Shown here piece after piece: positions 398-41,191 of a DNA stretch of 43,538 bases. The translations under genes were made by a program, and so were the position numbers. Position 1 is the first letter of the stretch. Each line of letters starts with the position of its first letter. The notes under the pieces are model-generated. The model did no database searches and was not told the origin of the DNA. It worked only from the letters and a program-made list of their open reading frames with translations. This stretch comes from a virus (Duplodnaviria; Heunggongvirae; Uroviricota; Caudoviricetes). The DNA lies in the IMG/VR virus record IMGVR_UViG_2687453364_000004; one strand, 5' to 3'.

Positions 398-676
398 TCA
401 GCTCCATTCCCGAAGCGGTGTTTCCAGCTCCACGACATAATCAGAGAATACAGAAACATCAAACAAGTCATCAAGAATGCGAATGTTGACAAAATAACCG
501 TCATTCCGGACACAGACAGGTTCTCCCTCTTCTGTTACCCCTGTTTCTGTGTAGGTGAAACCAATTTCATCGACTAACAGTTTATTCTGGAGGTCTTCAT
601 CCTCCTCCCAGTCAAGAGATGACAGGAAGGATTTAAACTCTCTGTTACCAGGAAATTTCAAAGTTAAATCTTTCAT
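398..676 (-). CDS. hypothetical acidic protein, translationally coupled to stf (possible tail-fibre chaperone)
   Basis: 92-aa ORF; its ATG overlaps the stf stop (ATGA) and follows an AGGAGG Shine-Dalgarno; acidic composition; no similarity to lambda Tfa recognised. Confidence 0.4.
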   Translation of the reverse strand: MKDLTLKFPGNREFKSFLSSLDWEEDEDLQNKLLVDEIGFTYTETGVTEEGEPVCVRNDGYFVNIRILDDLFDVSVFSDYVVELETPLREWS

Positions 677-2694
677 ACTGCCTCCTTGATTTGCCTGTCA
701 TTTAATTCTTTAAACCAGACTCTGAAATTTCTGATGTGTCCAAACAAATGACGCGTTCCTGCTGCGGTCTGCCCACCAAACCGGTACGATGTTGCTGTAA
801 CTCCAAATATTTTACCATTAAGGTTTGTTGTATAATTACCATTGCATATTGCATTTACTGATAAATCAGATTTAGCTCTCACACCCACAATGAACCTTTC
901 TCCATCTGAGGCAATTTGTGGCTGAACCATTCCTACGTTGGCGCTTATCTTTCCTGTTGCAACAAACCCCAGCGATAAATAATTATCATCAATACTGTGC
1001 CCTCCAACATCAAATATCCTTGGCGCAACATTGGGCGGTGTACTCCAGTTCCTGCTTACTTCGCACAATACCGTAAAAGGCCGTGTTGACAGGTTATTCT
1101 GCGATGGGATAGTAACTACATCACTTGCGCGTGTTGTTGGCATTGTAGTTACAATAAATGACGATGCCGTATTGCCCAGTTCAATTTGCGGCGTCGTCAT
1201 GGTTAATGTTGAGTCATCATAGAATGTCTCATTACTTATTTTATTTGTCATATAAAAAGCACAGTTAACGGTATCAATGTCCGTATTAGCTGTATAAGTG
1301 GCCTCATAGTAGGTCCACTCGCCCTGTTGTTCAGCTTTGGCTGTTATAAGGGATGTATTACCGCTTACTGTTGCGATCCGGGTATCCAGATCAAGATAAG
1401 AGTCAGCAGAGAAGGTATCTGTTCCACCAATAATAACTGAAACTCTTAACCTGCATCGTGCTTTAGCGCCTTTAACCCGGCACGAAAAAGTGAAACATTC
1501 ACCACTTGCCAGCGGGAATCTGTCTGCTGCAACCACACCATGCACAGTATAGCCACCTGTTGTTCCCACTATACTTTCCGTGGGTGTCACCGTGGCATAA
1601 TTGAACCCCTGTTTATCAGTGCCAAATGTTTTATTCAGTGCGGAATGAACAGTCCATGAGTCTGGTTTATTTGAGTTCCTCAGATAATTTGTCCTCTGTC
1701 CTTCAATCAATAAGCCATCGCGCTCAAATCGCGGTTCGTCAACTTCAGCAAGCTTGAGTTGGCCGGACTTATTAATATACGTTGCTGTTGAAGCACGTTT
1801 AAACTTAACAATCTTGTCGCCTGGCATTGTTATTTCATCGTCACCAATAACTATCTTTTTATAAGATGGCGAAAAACCCGTAATCATATCCAGTGAATCG
1901 TTAAACGGTATCCACACATCAGGCAGCGGCGGCACTATATTCGCACAGGGCTCTGCAGTCACTTCCGCTGCGGCTTCTGCGCGGTCTGCCGCCTTTTCAG
2001 CTCGTGTCGCTGCCGACAGAGCCTCATCCTTTTTCTGCCCGGCCTTTGTTGCGTCTGCTGCGGCCTCCCGCGCTTTTGTGGTGGCGACTCCGGCATTTTC
2101 AGCGGCTGACTCTGCATTACGGCGGGAAGCCTCTTCACTGTCTGCGGAGGCTTCTTCTGACGCACGGGCATTTGTCTCTGAACGTTCTGCCGCTGTTGCT
2201 GCGTTTTGTGCGGCTGTTTTTGAAGAAGCTGCCGCTTTCGCGCTGTTACCTGCATTCGTCTCTGATGTTTTCGCCGCGTTCCTGGACGATGCCGCTGCTG
2301 TTTCTGATTTCTTTGCTGCCGCTGCGCTCTGAGAGGCGGCTTCAGCGTTGCGTGCCGCCTCTTCCACCATCTTTTCAAAACGATACAGTGCCTCCGGACA
2401 AACATCATCTTCTGTTGCAGCGCCCAGAAAATCATTCAATGTCCCCGGCTTAGAATCCTCATACACGGTGATGGTCCCGGCATGTGAAGGCGGAAAACCT
2501 TCAACCAGCAGGGCGACGCTGTACTGGCCATACTCAACATCCATGCTGTAACGTCCGGCTTCATCCGGATTTTCTGAGGCCACCGTGTTCACCACAACTG
2601 TGGTGCTGTTACGTTTTGCTTTGAGCTGAATGGTGCAGTTCTGTATCGGTTTTCCTGCACCGTCTTTCAGCACACCTGAAATCTGTACTGCCAT
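673..2694 (-). CDS. stf: side tail fibre protein (Stf-like)
   Basis: N-terminus MAVQISGVLKDGAGKPIQNCTIQLKA... matches the lambda Stf N-terminal domain from memory, followed by an Ala/Ser-rich helical repeat region and a divergent C-terminal domain; the track ORF starts at an upstream GTG (2700), the ATG at 2694 matches the lambda start. Confidence 0.85.
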   Translation of the reverse strand: MAVQISGVLKDGAGKPIQNCTIQLKAKRNSTTVVVNTVASENPDEAGRYSMDVEYGQYSVALLVEGFPPSHAGTITVYEDSKPGTLNDFLGAATEDDVCPEALYRFEKMVEEAARNAEAASQSAAAAKKSETAAASSRNAAKTSETNAGNSAKAAASSKTAAQNAATAAERSETNARASEEASADSEEASRRNAESAAENAGVATTKAREAAADATKAGQKKDEALSAATRAEKAADRAEAAAEVTAEPCANIVPPLPDVWIPFNDSLDMITGFSPSYKKIVIGDDEITMPGDKIVKFKRASTATYINKSGQLKLAEVDEPRFERDGLLIEGQRTNYLRNSNKPDSWTVHSALNKTFGTDKQGFNYATVTPTESIVGTTGGYTVHGVVAADRFPLASGECFTFSCRVKGAKARCRLRVSVIIGGTDTFSADSYLDLDTRIATVSGNTSLITAKAEQQGEWTYYEATYTANTDIDTVNCAFYMTNKISNETFYDDSTLTMTTPQIELGNTASSFIVTTMPTTRASDVVTIPSQNNLSTRPFTVLCEVSRNWSTPPNVAPRIFDVGGHSIDDNYLSLGFVATGKISANVGMVQPQIASDGERFIVGVRAKSDLSVNAICNGNYTTNLNGKIFGVTATSYRFGGQTAAGTRHLFGHIRNFRVWFKELNDRQIKEAV

Positions 2695-5700: not shown

Positions 5701-6235
5701 TATTAAACGGGCGCGGCGGCAGGTTATCCACCACCACCGAGGCCAGATACTGCGAGGTGGTTTTGCCCTTAATGGTGATGTCTTTTTCCGTCACCCAGCC
5801 ACCGTTACGCTGTATCTGAACCAGCAGGCGAACTTCCGACGGATTCCTGTCTCCCTTTGAGGTGGTTTCCACCAGTGCCTGTACACCGAAGGTAAAGCGC
5901 AGACGGTCGATGTTTGCCGACGTGATGGTCCGGGTGATCGGCGTGTCATATTTCACTTCCGTACCCAGCACCGTCTCGGAGCCGGAGGATTCAAATCCCT
6001 CCGGCGGTGACTGCTCCTGCTCACCGGCCCGGAACACCACCGTGACGCCGGATATATTGGTATTCCCCTCACTGTCCAGCACCGGCGTACTGTTCAGCAG
6101 CACGCTTTTTAATCCATCCACCGGACCTTCAACCGGCCCTTCGCTGATGGCATCGATCACACTCAGCAGCTGCGTGGACTTCAGGTTGTCCTTCGCTTCG
6201 CGCGGGGTATGCCCCTTACTGCTGCCTTTACCCAT
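2753..6235 (-). CDS. J: central tail fibre / host specificity protein J
   Basis: 1160 aa; near-identical to lambda J over the N-terminal ~800 aa ([34 protein letters not shown]...), C-terminal receptor-binding part more divergent. Confidence 0.95.
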
Positions 6236-6295
6236 TCGTCATGCTCCATAAACGATAAAACCGCCCGGAGGCGGTTTCACATAAAACGTTTTTCA

Positions 6296-6937
6296 TCAGC
6301 GACCAATCACCACAACCTGACCACCATCACCTTCATCTGCTGTGCTGATCTCCTGAGATACCACACGTGATCCCACGCGCATTTCACCGTACAGAACGGG
6401 CAGAACATTGCCCTGGGCAACCATATTATCCAGTGAAGAAAAATAGGTGTTCTGTTTGCCGTTATCCGTTGTCTGTGTGCGGGGGGTTCTGGGTTTAGGG
6501 GCCAGCATCTGTGCAACACCGCCAAGCGTCATACTGGCACCGAGAGAAAACAGCAGATTACTCGCCATAATTCCTACCCCCGGCATCCATATAGCAACCG
6601 CCATAACAGCCGCCCCCAGCACAGCCTGAAACACACCGCCACTTTTGGCTCCTGCCAGACGCGGCACGATATGGATCACAGCACCATTTGCCAGCGGTTC
6701 ATTAAGACGGGCTGATAATTCCGTTTCACCTGTATCACGCCCGGCAATCCGTACCTGATACCAGCCGTCGCTCAGTTTCTGACGAAACGCCGGGAGCTGT
6801 GTGGCCAGCGCCCGGATGGCTTCAGCCCCCGTTTTCACACGAAGGTCGATGCGGCGGCCAAATCGTTGTAAATCCCCGTAAAGGCAGATGCGCGCCATGC
6901 CCGGTGACGCCAGAGGGAGTGTGTGCGTCGCTGCCAT
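6296..6937 (-). CDS. I: tail tip assembly protein I
   Basis: MAATHTLPLASPGMARICLYGDLQRFGRRIDLRVKTGAEAIRALATQLPAFRQ... matches lambda gpI. Confidence 0.9.
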   Translation of the reverse strand: MAATHTLPLASPGMARICLYGDLQRFGRRIDLRVKTGAEAIRALATQLPAFRQKLSDGWYQVRIAGRDTGETELSARLNEPLANGAVIHIVPRLAGAKSGGVFQAVLGAAVMAVAIWMPGVGIMASNLLFSLGASMTLGGVAQMLAPKPRTPRTQTTDNGKQNTYFSSLDNMVAQGNVLPVLYGEMRVGSRVVSQEISTADEGDGGQVVVIGR

Positions 6938-11168: not shown

Positions 11169-11999
11169 ACCGGACTCCTCCTGCGATCCCTTCTGATACT
11201 GTCATCAGCATTACGTCATCCTCCGTCATGTCCGCCACATCCGGGGAAGCGGGGATAACTTCATTCCCGTCCGGGCCAAAGCGGACACCTCCGGCAAGCC
11301 CTGCCGCTTTCTGCATCAGCACATCATCTTCAGGCTCTTCGTCAGCCTCGCGCCGGTTCAGCAGACTGAAATCCAGCGGATGCATATCCGGATCGCTGAA
11401 AAACAGGCTGAGCACGGTGTACGTCAGCCCGGAAAAGTGCATATCCAGCAGAACATCATGAAAATAATGGGTACTGTAAAAGCGGTGCCAGTCGGCATAC
11501 TCCGTGGATGACATCCCGGCAAGCATGGCACGCCAGTCGGGTCGCCCCATCTCACGCGCCAGTTTCAGGGCAAAACTCAGCTCACCGTCGAACACTTTCC
11601 CGCAGAAACAGGCTCTGCAGGCCCGGCGTCCTCTGCCTGTTCGGGGGCATTATTCACCACAAACTCATACATACCGGACAGCCGGTACACCACGTTTTCA
11701 GCATGAGAAATTGCCTCTGTGGGCCAGGTGGTAAGCACTTCCTGCTCAATCTGTTTAACGGCTTCATTCATGGACGGCATCTGCGTCTTCTTCGGATGGT
11801 TATGCCACAGGGACATCGCCACCAGAAACGCGCCGGTTCTGATGACGTCTTCCACAGTAACCTGCCGGTTGCTGTCGGATCCCGCCGGTTCTGCCTGCCG
11901 TTTCATCAGGGCAAGATGCTCAATACGCTGCAGGGCTGACAGTTCAGAAAGCGTGACGGTCACGCCGTTATATTCAAATGATTCGGTTTTCAGGAACAT
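11161..11999 (-). CDS. T: tail assembly chaperone G-T fusion made by programmed -1 frameshift
   Basis: the ORF 11161-11595 is in the -1 frame relative to G and matches lambda T; the slippery heptamer G GGA AAG sits at the end of G. Confidence 0.85.
11577..11999 (-). CDS. G: tail assembly chaperone G
   Basis: 140 aa, MFLKTESFEYNGVTVTLSELSALQRIEHLALMKRQAE... matches lambda gpG. Confidence 0.95.
   Translation of the reverse strand: MFLKTESFEYNGVTVTLSELSALQRIEHLALMKRQAEPAGSDSNRQVTVEDVIRTGAFLVAMSLWHNHPKKTQMPSMNEAVKQIEQEVLTTWPTEAISHAENVVYRLSGMYEFVVNNAPEQAEDAGPAEPVSAGKCSTVS
11595..11601 (-). promoter_or_regulatory. programmed -1 ribosomal frameshift slippery site (G GGA AAG) for G-T
   Basis: minus-strand GGGAAAG in the G frame just before the G stop, the same heptamer used in lambda G-T. 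Confidence 0.8.
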
Positions 12000-20972: not shown

Positions 20973-20998
<26 letters not shown>

Positions 20999-21518
20999 TC
21001 AGCAACCCCGGTATCAGTTCATCCAGCGCGGCTGCTTTGTTCATGGCTTTGATGATATCCCGTTTCAGGAAATCAACATGTCGGTTTTCCAGTTCCGGAA
21101 AACGCCGCTGCACCGACAGGGGGATCCCGTCGAGAATACTGGCAATTTCACCTGCGATCCGCGACAGCACGAAAGTACAGAATGCGGTTTCCACCACTTC
21201 AGCGGAGTCTCTGGCATTTTTCAGCTCCTGTGCGTCGGCCTGCGCACGCGTAAGTCGATGGCGTTCGTACTCAATAGTCCCTGGCTGGAGATCTGTCTCG
21301 CTGGCCTGTCGCAGTTCTTCAACCTCCCGGCGCAGCTTTTCGTTCTCAATTTCAGCATCCCTTTCGGCATACCATTTTATGACGTCGGCAGAGTCATAAA
21401 GCACCTCATTACCCTTCCCACCGCCTCGCAGAACGGGCATTCCCTGCTCCTGCCAGTTCTGAATAGTACGGATACTCGCGCCGAAAATGTCAGCCAGCTG
21501 CTTTTTGTTGACTTCCAT
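20973..21518 (-). CDS. nu1: terminase small subunit Nu1
   Basis: 181 aa, MEVNKKQLADIFGASIRTIQNWQEQGMPVLRGGGKGNEVLYDS... matches lambda gpNu1. Confidence 0.95.
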
Positions 21519-21695
21519 TGTTCATTCCACGGACAAAAACAGAGAAAGGAAACGACAGAGGCCAAAAAGCCCGTTTTCAGCACCTGTCGTTTCCTTTCTT
21601 TTCAGGGAGTGTTTTAAATAAAAACATTAAGTTACGGCGAAGAAGAACGGAAACGCCTTAAACCGGAAAATTTTCATAAATAGCGAAAACCCGCG

Positions 21696-21708
21696 AGGTC
21701 GCCGCCCC
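21696..21708 (-). other. cos: cosN cohesive-end site (12-nt overhang), with cosB between it and nu1
   Basis: the plus strand reads ...CATAAATAGCGAAAACCCGCGAGGTCGCCGCCCCGTAACCTGTTGG..., the reverse complement of the lambda left end GGGCGGCGACCTCGCGGGTTTTCGCTATTTATG; it lies ~190 nt upstream of the nu1 ATG as in lambda; coordinates +/-1. Confidence 0.85.
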
Positions 21709-21855
21709 GTAACCTGTTGGATCGACGGAAAGGACCCGAAAACGAGAATAATTATCACTTACAGCAAGAATCGAATCTGATCTATTATGGTGCTTGCTAT
21801 TATGTGCCGGCACAAGTGCGTCGTTTACCGTCATTTCACACAGAGGCATCATCAA

Positions 21856-22107
21856 ATGAAAATCAGAAATATTCTCGCTATCTCCCTTGCGACATCATCC
21901 TTCAGTTGCCTGGCATTTAAATCCTCGCCCAATGTGCTACCAGGACCAACGAATCAACTAACTGCGGTAGAAAGTAAAATTATCGGACATTTTTATGCCC
22001 CACACAGTACATTACCCGGAACAACCATCACAGGGACATGTGACGCCTCCCCCGTCCCGGGATGCACCTGTCCGTTTTGTACTATGCTGCGTAGCCAAAA
22101 CCGATAA
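21856..22107 (+). CDS. hypothetical small secreted cysteine-rich protein (moron candidate)
   Basis: internal ATG of the track ORF 21787-22107 gives MKIRNILAISLATSSFSCLA..., a signal-peptide-like N-terminus, and a C-terminus with four Cys (GTCDASPVPGCTCPFC); weak GAGG Shine-Dalgarno; no family recognised. Confidence 0.3.
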   Translation: MKIRNILAISLATSSFSCLAFKSSPNVLPGPTNQLTAVESKIIGHFYAPHSTLPGTTITGTCDASPVPGCTCPFCTMLRSQNR

Positions 22108-22168
22108 CATCCGCATTTACCTGGTATTCCATGATGAGTTCACGCAGCGACTGATAGAGGAAGGAAAG

Positions 22169-22348
22169 ATGGTTAGTAAAAGCAAGGCGCATTGCCGCCG
22201 CATGCTGCAGGCATTGCAACAGACGAGAGCAGGTATTTTTGACCAGTTGGAAAACTGCCAGCATACTTTGCCCGAGTATATCGCCATCTCATCGGAAACC
22301 AGTGCAACTCTTATTCATCGGGTTCCACCAGAGAAAAAGAAGAAATGA
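22169..22348 (+). CDS. hypothetical small lysine-tailed protein
   Basis: internal ATG of the track ORF 21995-22348 with a good AGGAAGGA Shine-Dalgarno, giving MVSKSKAHCRRMLQALQQTRAGIF...EKKKK; unknown function; the longer form cannot be excluded. Confidence 0.25.
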   Translation: MVSKSKAHCRRMLQALQQTRAGIFDQLENCQHTLPEYIAISSETSATLIHRVPPEKKKK

Positions 22349-22470
22349 ACAGTGAGGCGTTGTGTGGCATACAACGCCTTCTTCCATCATTCCTCGTCAG
22401 CCATGACAAAAATATAACCGCTGGCTCTTTCATTTTTCTCCTGCTTCCAGCCCCTCTCTACCTGGAAGCA

Positions 22471-22797
22471 TCAAGGACGTGACGGCGTAAAGATAAATTG
22501 TCTCTTCACTCCCTGACAGGGGCGATTCTTTTCAAATCGCCATTTCGCCATGGCCTTCACCACTTCATCACGAAACAAATTATGAGGCTCTGAGCGGAGA
22601 AAAACGATCCGTGTCACAGTCCCATCAGCACCAATATCGAACTTAACCTCAACCAGCCCCTTGATATAATTTGCTGCAGCATATTCCGGATATCGTGGAT
22701 ACACCGTCACTAATTGCCGGGGCTCATCAGCTTTTTGCTGCGAGCATCCCACTGCCAGGACAGATAACAGAAAAAGTAGTAAAAGGCGTCTTTTCAT
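22471..22797 (-). CDS. lipoprotein with a TonB C-terminal-like domain (moron)
   Basis: internal ATG gives MKRRLLLLFLLSVLAVGCSQQ (lipobox LAVGC); the C-terminal region YPRYPEYAAANYIKGLVEVKFDIGADGTVTRIVFLRSEPHNLFRDEVVKAMAKWRFEKNRP fits the TonB_C pattern (YP..A....G.V.V.F.I...G.V..V.......F...........W.F) from memory. Confidence 0.5.
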   Translation of the reverse strand: MKRRLLLLFLLSVLAVGCSQQKADEPRQLVTVYPRYPEYAAANYIKGLVEVKFDIGADGTVTRIVFLRSEPHNLFRDEVVKAMAKWRFEKNRPCQGVKRQFIFTPSRP

Positions 22798-23277
22798 TTT
22801 TATTCCTACGGGTCTTATTCTGACAATATATCCTGTGTTCCAGACTGCCACATCACCACATCCTGTGCCATTATCTGACTCACATTACATACATCGCATC
22901 GGGATACAGTAGTAGCACTTTCTGTAATACAGCTTCCTGTTTCTTCCACCATCGCACCGGGATAAACCCGCGAATCATTAACGCGGTAAAAACCCGGTGT
23001 GCATCGTTTTTAATTATTCCCGCACACTCACGCAGAAGGAATTCCCCGTCGGGCTACGGTCATGGTTAATGCGGGAATACGGCGACGATACAGCGCAGCT
23101 AAAAGGGTAATGGACGGATAGACCGGTTTATTTCATTCCACAGGATTCTGAGTGTCCCCAACTTCCTCCAATAGTCTGAGCCCACCTGTGTAGTTTTAAT
23201 TTTCATCAATCCATTTAACTATCGTTTAATTGTTGTCACATAGGATTCTGCCGTTTTTAACAATGCAGGATAATAAG

Positions 23278-23571
23278 ATGAAAAAAATGTTGTTTTCTGC
23301 CGCTCTGGCAATGCTTATTACAGGATGTGCTCAACAGACGTTTACTGTTGGAAACAAACCTACAGCAGTAACACCAAAGGAAACCATCACCCATCATTTC
23401 TTCGTTTCGGGAATTGGGCAGAAGAAAACTGTCGATGCAGCAAAAATTTGTGGTGGTGCAGAAAATGTTGTTAAAACAGAAACCCAGCAAACATTCGTAA
23501 ATGGATTGCTCGGTTTTATTACTTTAGGCATTTATACTCCGCTGGAAGCGCGTGTGTATTGCTCACAATAA
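23278..23571 (+). CDS. bor: Bor outer-membrane lipoprotein (serum-resistance family)
   Basis: MKKMLFSAALAMLITGCAQQTFTVGNKPTAVTPKETITHHFFVSGIGQKKTVDAAKICGG... is near-identical to lambda Bor; opposite strand to the late genes as in lambda. Confidence 0.9.
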   Translation: MKKMLFSAALAMLITGCAQQTFTVGNKPTAVTPKETITHHFFVSGIGQKKTVDAAKICGGAENVVKTETQQTFVNGLLGFITLGIYTPLEARVYCSQ

Positions 23572-23602
23572 TTGCATGAGTTGCCCATCGATATGGGCAG
23601 CT

Positions 23603-24064
23603 CTATCTGCACTGCTCATTAATATACTTCTGGGTTCCTTCCAGTTGTTTTTGCATAGTGATCAGCCTCTCTCTGAGGGTGAAATAATCCCGTTCAGCGG
23701 TGTCTGCCAGTCGGGGGGAGGCTGCATTATCCACGCCGGAGGCGGTGGTGGCTTCACGCACTGACTGACAGACTGCTTTGATGTGCAACCGACGACGACC
23801 AGCGGCAACATCATCACGCAGAGCATCATTTTCAGCTTTCGCATCAGCTAACTCCTTCGTGTATTTTGCATCGAGCGCAGCAACATCACGCTGACGCATC
23901 TGTATGTCAGTAATTGCCGCGTTCGCCAGCGTCAGTTCTCTGGCATTTTTGTCGCGCTGGGCTTTGTAGGTAATCGCGTTATCGCGGTAATGATTAACCG
24001 CCCATGAAAGGCAGACGATGACGCAGATAACCAGAGCGGAGATAATCGCGGTTATTCTGCTCAT
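23603..24064 (-). CDS. Rz: inner-membrane spanin Rz
   Basis: 153 aa, [43 protein letters not shown]... matches lambda Rz. Confidence 0.95.
23662..23844 (-). CDS. Rz1: outer-membrane lipoprotein spanin Rz1 (embedded in Rz, +1 frame)
   Basis: 60 aa, [60 protein letters not shown] matches lambda Rz1. Confidence 0.9.
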
Positions 24065-24537
24065 ACCTCACTCTCTCTGAGCGTTCCGCCAGCTTCTTTG
24101 AATTTTGCAATCAGGCTGTCAGCCTTATGCTCGAACTGACCATAACCAGCGCCCGGCAGTGAAGCCCAGATATTGCTGCAACGGTCGATTGCCTGACGGA
24201 TATCACCGCGATCAATCATCGGTAAAGCACCACGCTCTTTAATCTGCTGTAATGCCACTGCGTCCTGGCTTTTGGGGGAGAAGTCTTTCAAACCAAGCTG
24301 TTTACGGTAAGCATCCCACCAGCGTGAAAGAAGCTGATAACGTCCGGCGGCTGTTGATTTGAGTTTGGGGTGTAGCGTGACAAGTTTGCGAGGGTGATCG
24401 GAGTAATCAGTAAACAGTTCGCCGCCAACAATAACATCATAACCGTGGTTACGTGTCGGTTGTCGCCCGTTATCCGTTCCTTCTGACCACGCCAACATAT
24501 CGAGGAAGGCTTTACGCTGAGGATTAAGATTTTGCAT
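24061..24537 (-). CDS. R: endolysin R (lambda-type lytic transglycosylase)
   Basis: 158 aa; ...[46 protein letters not shown]... matches lambda R. Confidence 0.95.

Positions 24538-40043: not shown

Positions 40044-41191
<1,148 letters not shown>

Follow-up and report, generated by a model that had tools for sequence, protein, structure and literature searches.

A short prophage lipoprotein built on a TonB C-terminal domain, and its possible action as a natural competitor of TonB

What would a temperate phage gain from a lipoprotein that consists of little more than TonB's C-terminal domain? The question is raised by a gene on the minus strand of a 43,538-nucleotide (nt) stretch of viral DNA (Caudoviricetes; IMG/VR record IMGVR_UViG_2687453364_000004), hereafter the window, a lambdoid prophage that resembles phage 21 but has another lysis cassette. 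A first-pass annotation of the window, made from the sequence alone, had proposed that the product of this gene is a periplasmic decoy that binds the Ton boxes of outer-membrane receptors and so interferes with TonB-dependent uptake by phages or colicins, or alternatively that it modulates iron uptake. The decoy interpretation is partly supported by the analysis described here. Binding of Ton boxes and antagonism of TonB-dependent processes is the best-supported mechanism for the protein, and is put forward tentatively, at somewhat short of an even chance.

The gene (Table 1) is an open reading frame (ORF) of 108 codons, and its translation is MKRRLLLLFLLSVLAVGCSQQKADEPRQLVTVYPRYPEYAAANYIKGLVEVKFDIGADGTVTRIVFLRSEPHNLFRDEVVKAMAKWRFEKNRPCQGVKRQFIFTPSRP. 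The coding sequence is identical to that of gp73 of phage 21, which is annotated as 'TonB C-terminal domain protein', and to RefSeq WP_000830178.1 ('TonB family protein'). An AGGA ribosome-binding site lies 6 nt 5′ of the ATG, and the start context GGAAT(A/G)AAAATG is common to the two alleles of the gene that are described below; a longer ORF starting from GTG 22851 has been adopted neither by the annotators of phage 21 nor by RefSeq. The product begins, as the first-pass annotation had read it, with a lipoprotein signal peptide ending in the lipobox LAVGC; this peptide consists of MKRR, a leucine-rich core and LAVG-C and satisfies a PROSITE-type lipoprotein rule. The mature protein is predicted to start at Cys18, which would carry the lipid, and Ser19 occupies position +2. 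Because the Asp that serves as an inner-membrane retention signal is absent from position +2, the protein is predicted to reach the outer membrane via Lol sorting. The lipobox is kept in both alleles (VGC or MGC, with S, T or A at +2), a homologue encoded by a Klebsiella phage has LLGC-SS, and S, T or A occupies +2 in all lipobox-bearing homologues examined. The mature protein, of 91 residues, is nearly all TonB C-terminal domain, joined to Cys18 by a tether of 7–9 residues (SQQKADEP).

Profile searches assign this mature body to the TonB_C family: the score for Pfam PF03544 is 49.2 bits (cut-off 24.6; E = 7.3e-13) and that for TIGR01352 is 47.4 bits (cut-off 27.1). When the PDB was searched with phmmer, C-terminal domains of E. 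coli TonB (1u07, 2gsk_B and 2grx_C) were aligned without gaps over residues 24–103 at E values of about 1e-14; this segment corresponds to TonB 151–230, with a numbering offset of +127, and 32 of its 80 residues (40%) are identical to TonB. The C-terminal 60 amino acids (aa) had been proposed to fit TonB_C, and the domain is indeed real, but it spans about 80 residues, which is nearly the whole of the mature protein. The structure was modelled with AlphaFold2 from 27 sequences of the family. The model, with a mean predicted local distance difference test (pLDDT) score of 87.6 that reaches about 97 across residues 31–100, predicts the TonB C-terminal fold: a short strand is followed by a helix, a pair of long strands, a second helix and the long strand β3 (residues 94–103). 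In a Foldseek comparison of this model with the PDB, the top matches are all TonB domains, at E values of 1e-8 to 1e-6, root-mean-square deviations (rmsd) of 1.0–1.2 Å and template-modelling (TM) scores of 0.90–0.93 when normalised to the target. The domain 1u07 is matched at E 1e-8, with an rmsd of 1.1 Å and a target-normalised TM score of 0.90; chain B of 2gsk (TonB with BtuB) and chain C of 2grx (TonB with FhuA) are among the closest structures, whereas TolA domains trail far behind TonB, at E 0.1 or worse. The profile matches and the model, which lies about 1 Å from solved domains, agree on the assignment that had been suggested from the sequence.

The likeness to TonB extends to the parts that lie at its interface with the Ton box. 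The YP motif is retained as P34-x-Y36-P37, corresponding to TonB P161, Y163 and P164, and so are all five of the conserved aromatic positions, F53, F75, W86, F88 and F103, corresponding to TonB F180, F202, W213, Y215 and F230. Seventeen family members were compared: P34, Y36, F75, W86 and P93 do not vary among them, and P37 and F103 hardly do. In solved complexes, the Ton box of the transporter pairs with β3 of TonB (review PMC11658791); this strand is full-length in the modelled lipoprotein, the chain of which ends 5 residues past it (TPSRP).

The possibility that the protein is itself a functional TonB was rejected. It has the family, fold, YP motif, aromatic residues and element order of TonB's C-terminal domain (approximately residues 150–239; 1u07, 2gsk chain B and 2grx chain C), but it lacks the N-terminal membrane anchor helix, the proline-rich spacer and the link to ExbB/ExbD, and carries a lipoprotein signal instead. 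Its sole hydrophobic segment is the cleavable signal peptide, and the NCBIfam equivalogs of TonB are matched at 45–69 bits against cut-offs of 265–448, through the C-terminal parts of the profiles only. Because all of the parts that couple TonB to energy are missing, the role of a competitor of TonB is a simple reading of this architecture.

The gene is widespread and under purifying selection. A region of 701 bp around it is 100% identical to phage 21 and 99.9–100% identical to six other phage records, the exact protein occurs on at least 1000 contigs, and among the best 80 viral contigs it is 100% conserved in 71. Of 5426 complete E. coli genomes, 1226 carry this first allele, Nissle 1917 among them, and its annotation there is always just 'TonB family protein'. 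A second allele, likewise encoding 108 aa, with 70–72% protein identity and 73% DNA identity to the first, is found in 415 further genomes of the same set, including O157:H7 and O111 strains, and also in Stx1a-converting phages, in which it is flanked by the lysis genes and an HNH/terminase module. Together, the two alleles occur in about 30% of complete E. coli genomes. The Klebsiella phage ST13-OXA48phi12.4 encodes, in the same slot after the lysis genes, a lipoprotein that is 39.5% identical. Between the two alleles, nonsynonymous divergence (dN) is 0.18 and synonymous divergence (dS) is about 1.46, which gives a dN/dS of 0.12 that is similar in the signal peptide and the mature part, and protein length, lipobox, start context and ribosome-binding site are all kept. 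Because of this low ratio, the gene is best regarded as a maintained, working gene with an architecture of its own, and labels such as 'partial tonB-like' and 'TonB fragment' are therefore misleading. The protein, already in the databases under a generic name, is best described as a new architectural variant of a known domain.

If the protein acts as a decoy, it would sit beside TonB-dependent transporters at the inner face of the outer membrane and would capture their Ton boxes by β-strand pairing, as TonB does. Having no link to ExbB/ExbD, it would transmit no force and would thus compete with TonB. Host Ton boxes are the most economical target because of the 40% identity to the E. coli TonB domain. 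The Ton boxes that group B colicins themselves possess might also be captured as the colicins enter. T1 and phi80 need TonB for irreversible adsorption, and this step would be dampened for such phages, as would the entry of TonB-dependent colicins and microcins and the import of siderophores and of siderophore-drug conjugates. The prophage would profit by shielding its host, or the infected cell, from other phages and from bacteriocins.

Engineered TonB domains freed from energy coupling offer a direct experimental precedent for this mechanism: periplasmic TonB 33–239 abolishes 55Fe-ferrichrome transport and causes iron-starved growth, and the fragments 103–239 and 122–239 reportedly have the same effect (bioRxiv 10.1101/2020.01.05.895219). 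These dominant-negative fragments resemble the phage protein in placing the TonB C-terminal domain in the periplasm without energy coupling, but they are soluble, overexpressed and laboratory-made, whereas the phage protein is natural, shorter (approximately TonB 146–235) and predicted to be lipid-anchored. Phages are also known to act on a TonB-dependent transporter from within the cell, because FhuA is inactivated at its periplasmic face by the outer-membrane lipoproteins Llp of T5 and Cor of phi80, N15 and HK022; TonB bound to FhuA hinders the binding of Llp (bioRxiv 10.64898/2026.03.26.714494). The TonB_C lipoprotein would share with Llp and Cor (including Cor of mEp167) a small size, a phage origin and a location in the outer membrane at the periplasmic side of a TonB-dependent transporter. 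Llp and Cor are nevertheless unrelated to it in sequence and fold and form a fold family of their own; no match to Cor or Llp was found in PHROG, Pfam or NCBIfam, and the significant structural matches are all TonB domains. Moreover, Llp and Cor are specific to FhuA and serve phages that use FhuA, whereas the TonB_C lipoprotein would act on Ton boxes generally and belongs to a phage that uses LamB. Bor/Iss, in the same slot between Rz and cos, is likewise a prophage outer-membrane lipoprotein of about 100 aa, but has no kinship in sequence or fold, lies on the opposite strand with its own annotated promoter, and occurs independently of the TonB_C gene.

The phage proteins belong to a wider set of short TonB_C proteins. 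An exhaustive profile search recovers 2795 proteins at E ≤0.001; among the top 150 matches, 25 are of ≤160 aa, and at least 11 of those have a lipobox with S, T or A at +2. Many of the top matches are proteins with 2–6 matched stretches, and TonB_C occurs in many architectures. In a neighbour-joining tree of the domains, which was built without bootstrap and is indicative only, the phage proteins and the short proteins form a clade of 34 that does not contain E. coli TonB, and the next larger clade takes it in. The short TonB_C lipoproteins of Enterobacterales (about 105–135 aa; Raoultella, Erwinia and the Klebsiella phage) likewise consist of a lipobox and a single TonB_C domain, have 35–46% full-length identity to the phage protein and share with it the motif SEPxHLFD...KWRFE.xKP; unlike the prophage gene, several of them are chromosomal, and all are uncharacterised. 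The combination of lipobox and TonB_C is a family in its own right, which has been recruited by phages at least in E. coli and Klebsiella. Membership in this family gives no mechanism.

Several observations weigh against the decoy interpretation. Three TonB residues implicated in contacts with the Ton box or the plug are changed in the phage protein, Q160 being replaced by Y33, R158 by T31 and R166 by Y39, and the position of Q160 is occupied by Leu in the second allele. The TonB mutations Q160L and Q160K suppress Ton-box mutations; the hydrophobic Tyr or Leu at the equivalent position is notable, and no interpretation of it is possible. Relatives in Raoultella and Erwinia that are 39–45% identical are chromosomal and have no phage or iron-uptake neighbours, being located instead near lacZ/lacI and envelope-type genes, in a toxin-antitoxin/insertion sequence island, and, in Erwinia, near ara genes. 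Given such ordinary surroundings, an anti-phage action is not intrinsic to the family, for which these relatives suggest a housekeeping role in the envelope. PADLOC-DB v2 contains no defence family that matches either allele or the Klebsiella phage homologue at E up to 0.1. Full-text literature searches covering phage 21, the accession of the protein, prophage proteins that resemble TonB, and cargo near bor/iss yielded no functional study. No convincing sigma-70 promoter was found on the gene strand, either by a consensus scan of 21500–24100 or by a relaxed scan of 22798–23300, the best candidate matching at 8 of 12 positions; both alleles share a GATAAT box some 80 nt upstream, without a matching −35 element. 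Upstream of the gene no Fur box scores above 11 of 19. Because the gene is co-oriented with the late operon, it may be expressed only late in lytic growth, and such late-only synthesis would make exclusion less obviously useful.

The receptor of the phage itself is a further point of this kind. The C-terminus of its J protein is 99.3% identical to that of phage 21 J, and phage 21 is listed among phages that use LamB (PMC12803456). Self-exclusion was accordingly rejected, J being of the phage 21 type and LamB being TonB-independent; for the same reason any exclusion would have to act on other phages. The Llp preprint also cites work according to which Cor-positive, FhuA-dependent temperate coliphages have a high incidence (bioRxiv 10.64898/2026.03.26.714494), and such coliphages would be natural competitors. 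A constant block of TonB should also be costly in iron-poor niches, yet the gene is carried by Nissle 1917, which depends on siderophores.

In phage 21 and in the Nissle 1917 prophage, which is located at icd, the sitABCD iron/manganese importer lies beyond the tail-fibre genes. Because position 1 of the window aligns one base before sitD in both of them, sitABCD very probably lies just outside the window. All seven phage records with the first allele contain sitABCD, 20 other sit-positive phages are without the TonB_C gene, and the phages with the second allele are without sit; functional coupling of the gene to sitABCD was therefore rejected in favour of linkage within one lineage. That SitABCD offsets the iron cost of a decoy is an idea only. 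It is part of a fuller scenario, in which the protein is a natural, outer-membrane-anchored TonB decoy carried by prophages in about 30% of complete E. coli genomes, confers broad tolerance to TonB-dependent phages, to group B colicins and microcins and possibly to siderophore-antibiotic conjugates, has its iron cost offset in the phage 21 lineage by the TonB-independent SitABCD, and brings about a receptor-independent exclusion at the level of energy coupling; taken as a whole, this scenario is doubtful.

Three other explanations were weighed against capture of host Ton boxes. TonB_C may be a general strand-capturing module, and the lipoprotein may bind some other partner, a periplasmic or outer-membrane protein of the host or of the phage, that offers a Ton-box-like strand, with a role in envelope physiology instead of exclusion. 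This would fit the ordinary chromosomal setting of its nearest kin beyond the prophages of E. coli, which are short lipoproteins or secreted proteins with TonB_C, the exclusion of E. coli TonB from the clade of 34, the many architectures and the multiple matched stretches among the top matches, and the loss of TonB Q160, R158 and R166. No candidate partner has been identified, however, and the conserved YP motif and aromatic core match those of genuine TonB, so that another partner appears unlikely. A remnant of a captured tonB without function, which is what the annotations 'partial tonB-like membrane protein' and 'TonB fragment' in ev017 and Perceval imply, would also account for truncated or frameshifted database variants with diverged C-terminal ends (for example, P0003 and P0005). 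Such a remnant is very improbable given the dN/dS of 0.12 between alleles of equal length, the gain and conservation of a lipoprotein signal peptide together with a conserved ribosome-binding site and start context, the complete conservation of the protein in most of the best viral contigs, and a high-confidence modelled fold that spans the complete domain.

The remaining explanation takes the position of the gene as its starting point. A lipoprotein encoded directly after the lysis cassette, always on the same strand and beside Bor/Iss, might tie the outer membrane to the cell wall and thereby stabilise the envelope or take part in lysis, or might contribute to serum or envelope resistance, as Bor/Iss does; TonB's C-terminal domain has been reported to associate with peptidoglycan, and PHROG 1267, labelled 'Rz-like spanin', is matched by the protein at E 5e-43. 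A spanin was rejected, since separate Rz and Rz1 genes are present and the body of the protein is a globular TonB_C domain, with neither a C-terminal membrane helix nor the proline-rich body of Rz1. The label of PHROG 1267 was probably carried over from neighbouring genes, and is doubted because a complete Rz/Rz1 pair is already next door. A complete spanin pair is also present in the Klebsiella phage, and the post-lysis slot is a general insertion point for cargo genes. A role in lysis or in envelope stabilisation is accordingly distinctly unlikely, and binding of Ton boxes remains the preferred, if tentative, reading.

A conserved element of about 170 nt that resembles a structured RNA is located between bor and the TonB_C gene, some 130 nt upstream of the coding sequence. 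The loci of the two alleles share about 90% identity over this element, compared with 73% for the coding sequence. Among the 5426 E. coli genomes, 4583 contain the element, at 11733 places in all and as many as 11 in one genome, and 432 phage records, some of them of lambda-type phages, have it too; it always comes after lysis genes or bor, with or without a TonB_C gene downstream. The RNAalifold consensus of 12 distinct copies comprises 44 pairs in seven helices, with 97.7% of cells paired, a value that drops to 32–58% in slid controls. Compensatory changes are found in five pairs, compared with 1.2 ± 0.9 in shuffled alignments, none of 500 of which reaches the observed value. Many of the changes are from U-A to U-G or from C-G to U-G, for which pairing survives only on the strand of the late transcript. 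No Rfam family matches the element at the gathering threshold or at relaxed E values. Part of the conservation may be that of promoter sequence, because the bor promoter annotated in HK630 falls within the element's first third, on the opposite strand.

The order of genes in the region is Q, S, R, Rz/Rz1, bor (on the opposite strand), the TonB_C gene, two convergent small ORFs, cosN, Nu1 and A. The location between Rz and cos, near bor, given in the first-pass annotation is borne out by the coordinates of Rz, Rz1, bor, cosN and Nu1 (Table 1), and, from the position of cosN, about 770 bp separate the gene from the right-hand end of the DNA in the virion. The same order recurs across the 80 viral contigs, with variation in the type of endolysin, and bor was detected in only part of the surveyed loci that have the TonB_C gene. 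The slot between Rz and cos is a classical cargo-gene slot, occupied in lambda by bor, a gene of lysogenic conversion; the TonB_C gene is always directly 3′ of the lysis cassette, on the same strand, in phages of both E. coli and Klebsiella. Downstream, 86 nt 3′ of the stop codon, a G+C-rich hairpin (GGCGTTGT-loop-ACAACGCC) may, judging from its sequence, be a two-way terminator between the TonB_C gene and the convergent plus-strand ORFs; it was not called by a consensus terminator scan.

Two plus-strand ORFs converge on the TonB_C gene, and the hairpin lies 3′ of both. One would encode 83 aa with a signal peptide (MKIRNILAISLATSSFSCLA) and a Cys-rich C-terminus, and the other would encode 59 aa and matches PHROG 4843, of unknown function. 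Phage 21 and RefSeq instead annotate overlapping minus-strand ORFs there (PHROG 3744), and no match in Pfam was found for the small ORFs between the TonB_C gene and cos. The best Fur-box-like match of the window, with 15 of 19 positions identical to GATAATGATAATCATTATC, adjoins cosQ upstream of the convergent ORFs; it is probably not meaningful, and is not relied on because it is roughly at chance level, 0.1–0.3 such matches being expected in the 43.5-kb window by a rough binomial estimate. Elsewhere, the region between the replication genes (O and P) and Q holds two large cargo genes, one for an inverse autotransporter of 1421 aa that belongs to the intimin/invasin type (IAT_beta, E 6e-101) and contains multiple Big_1/Invasin_D3 repeats, the other for an alpha/beta hydrolase of 347 aa (BD-FAE, E 6e-45); the cargo of the prophage, counting bor and the TonB_C lipoprotein, includes several envelope-directed genes. 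The early-left region of the prophage contains an inserted transposase gene of the IS3 type, the product of which has an rve integrase core domain.

Table 1. Coordinates of the TonB_C lipoprotein gene, of other features of the window and of three chromosomal relatives (coordinates of the latter refer to their own loci)
Feature	Coordinates	Strand	Basis
Coding sequence of 108-aa lipoprotein with TonB C-terminal domain	22471-22797	-	ORF and translation; ATG at 22797, stop 22471-22473
Ribosome-binding site AGGA	22804-22807	-	sequence; annotated in phage 21
Lipoprotein signal peptide, residues 1-18 (MKRRLLLLFLLSVLAVGC), then SQQ	22744-22797	-	read from sequence
TonB_C domain, residues 24-103 (E. 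coli TonB 151-230)	22489-22728	-	Pfam/TIGRFAM, PDB alignment, model
Conserved structured RNA-like element, about 170 nt	22930-23099	- (late-transcript strand)	conservation, covariation
Rz	23603-24064	-	ORF
Rz1, embedded, proline-rich, lipobox VVGC	23662-23844	-	ORF
bor/iss-type outer-membrane lipoprotein gene	23278-23571	+	ORF; Bor in phage 21, Iss in Nissle 1917
G+C-rich hairpin	22353-22385		sequence
cosN, 12-nt cohesive end	21696-21707	-	exact match to GGGCGGCGACCT; cosQ annotated in phage 21
Nu1	20973-21518	-	ORF
ORF of 83 aa	21856-22107	+	
ORF of 59 aa	22169-22348	+	PHROG 4843
Overlapping ORF annotated in phage 21 and RefSeq	22082-22264	-	PHROG 3744
Fur-box-like match	21738-21756	+	15 of 19 positions
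Inverse autotransporter, 1421 aa	28769-33034	-	IAT_beta
Alpha/beta hydrolase, 347 aa	27689-28732	+	BD-FAE
IS3-type transposase	40044-40862	-	rve domain
Short TonB_C lipoprotein, Raoultella ornithinolytica (L003)	5998-6333		chromosomal
Short TonB_C lipoprotein, R. planticola (L004)	5932-6336		chromosomal
Short TonB_C lipoprotein, Erwinia sp. (L005)	557-913		chromosomal

Were the decoy interpretation to prove false, the protein would still be a compact natural TonB_C module, of lesser import. If it is true, exclusion by this prophage would jam the energy-coupling step that is common to all TonB-dependent transporters, rather than mask a single receptor, and one protein of 108 aa could shift the sensitivity of the cell to many phages, to the commonest bacteriocins of E. 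coli and to siderophore-linked antibiotics, as well as its iron uptake. Because the carriers include Nissle 1917, extraintestinal pathogens and O157:H7-type strains, the protein would then be relevant to host range in phage therapy, to the ecology of colicins and microcins, and to drug susceptibility.

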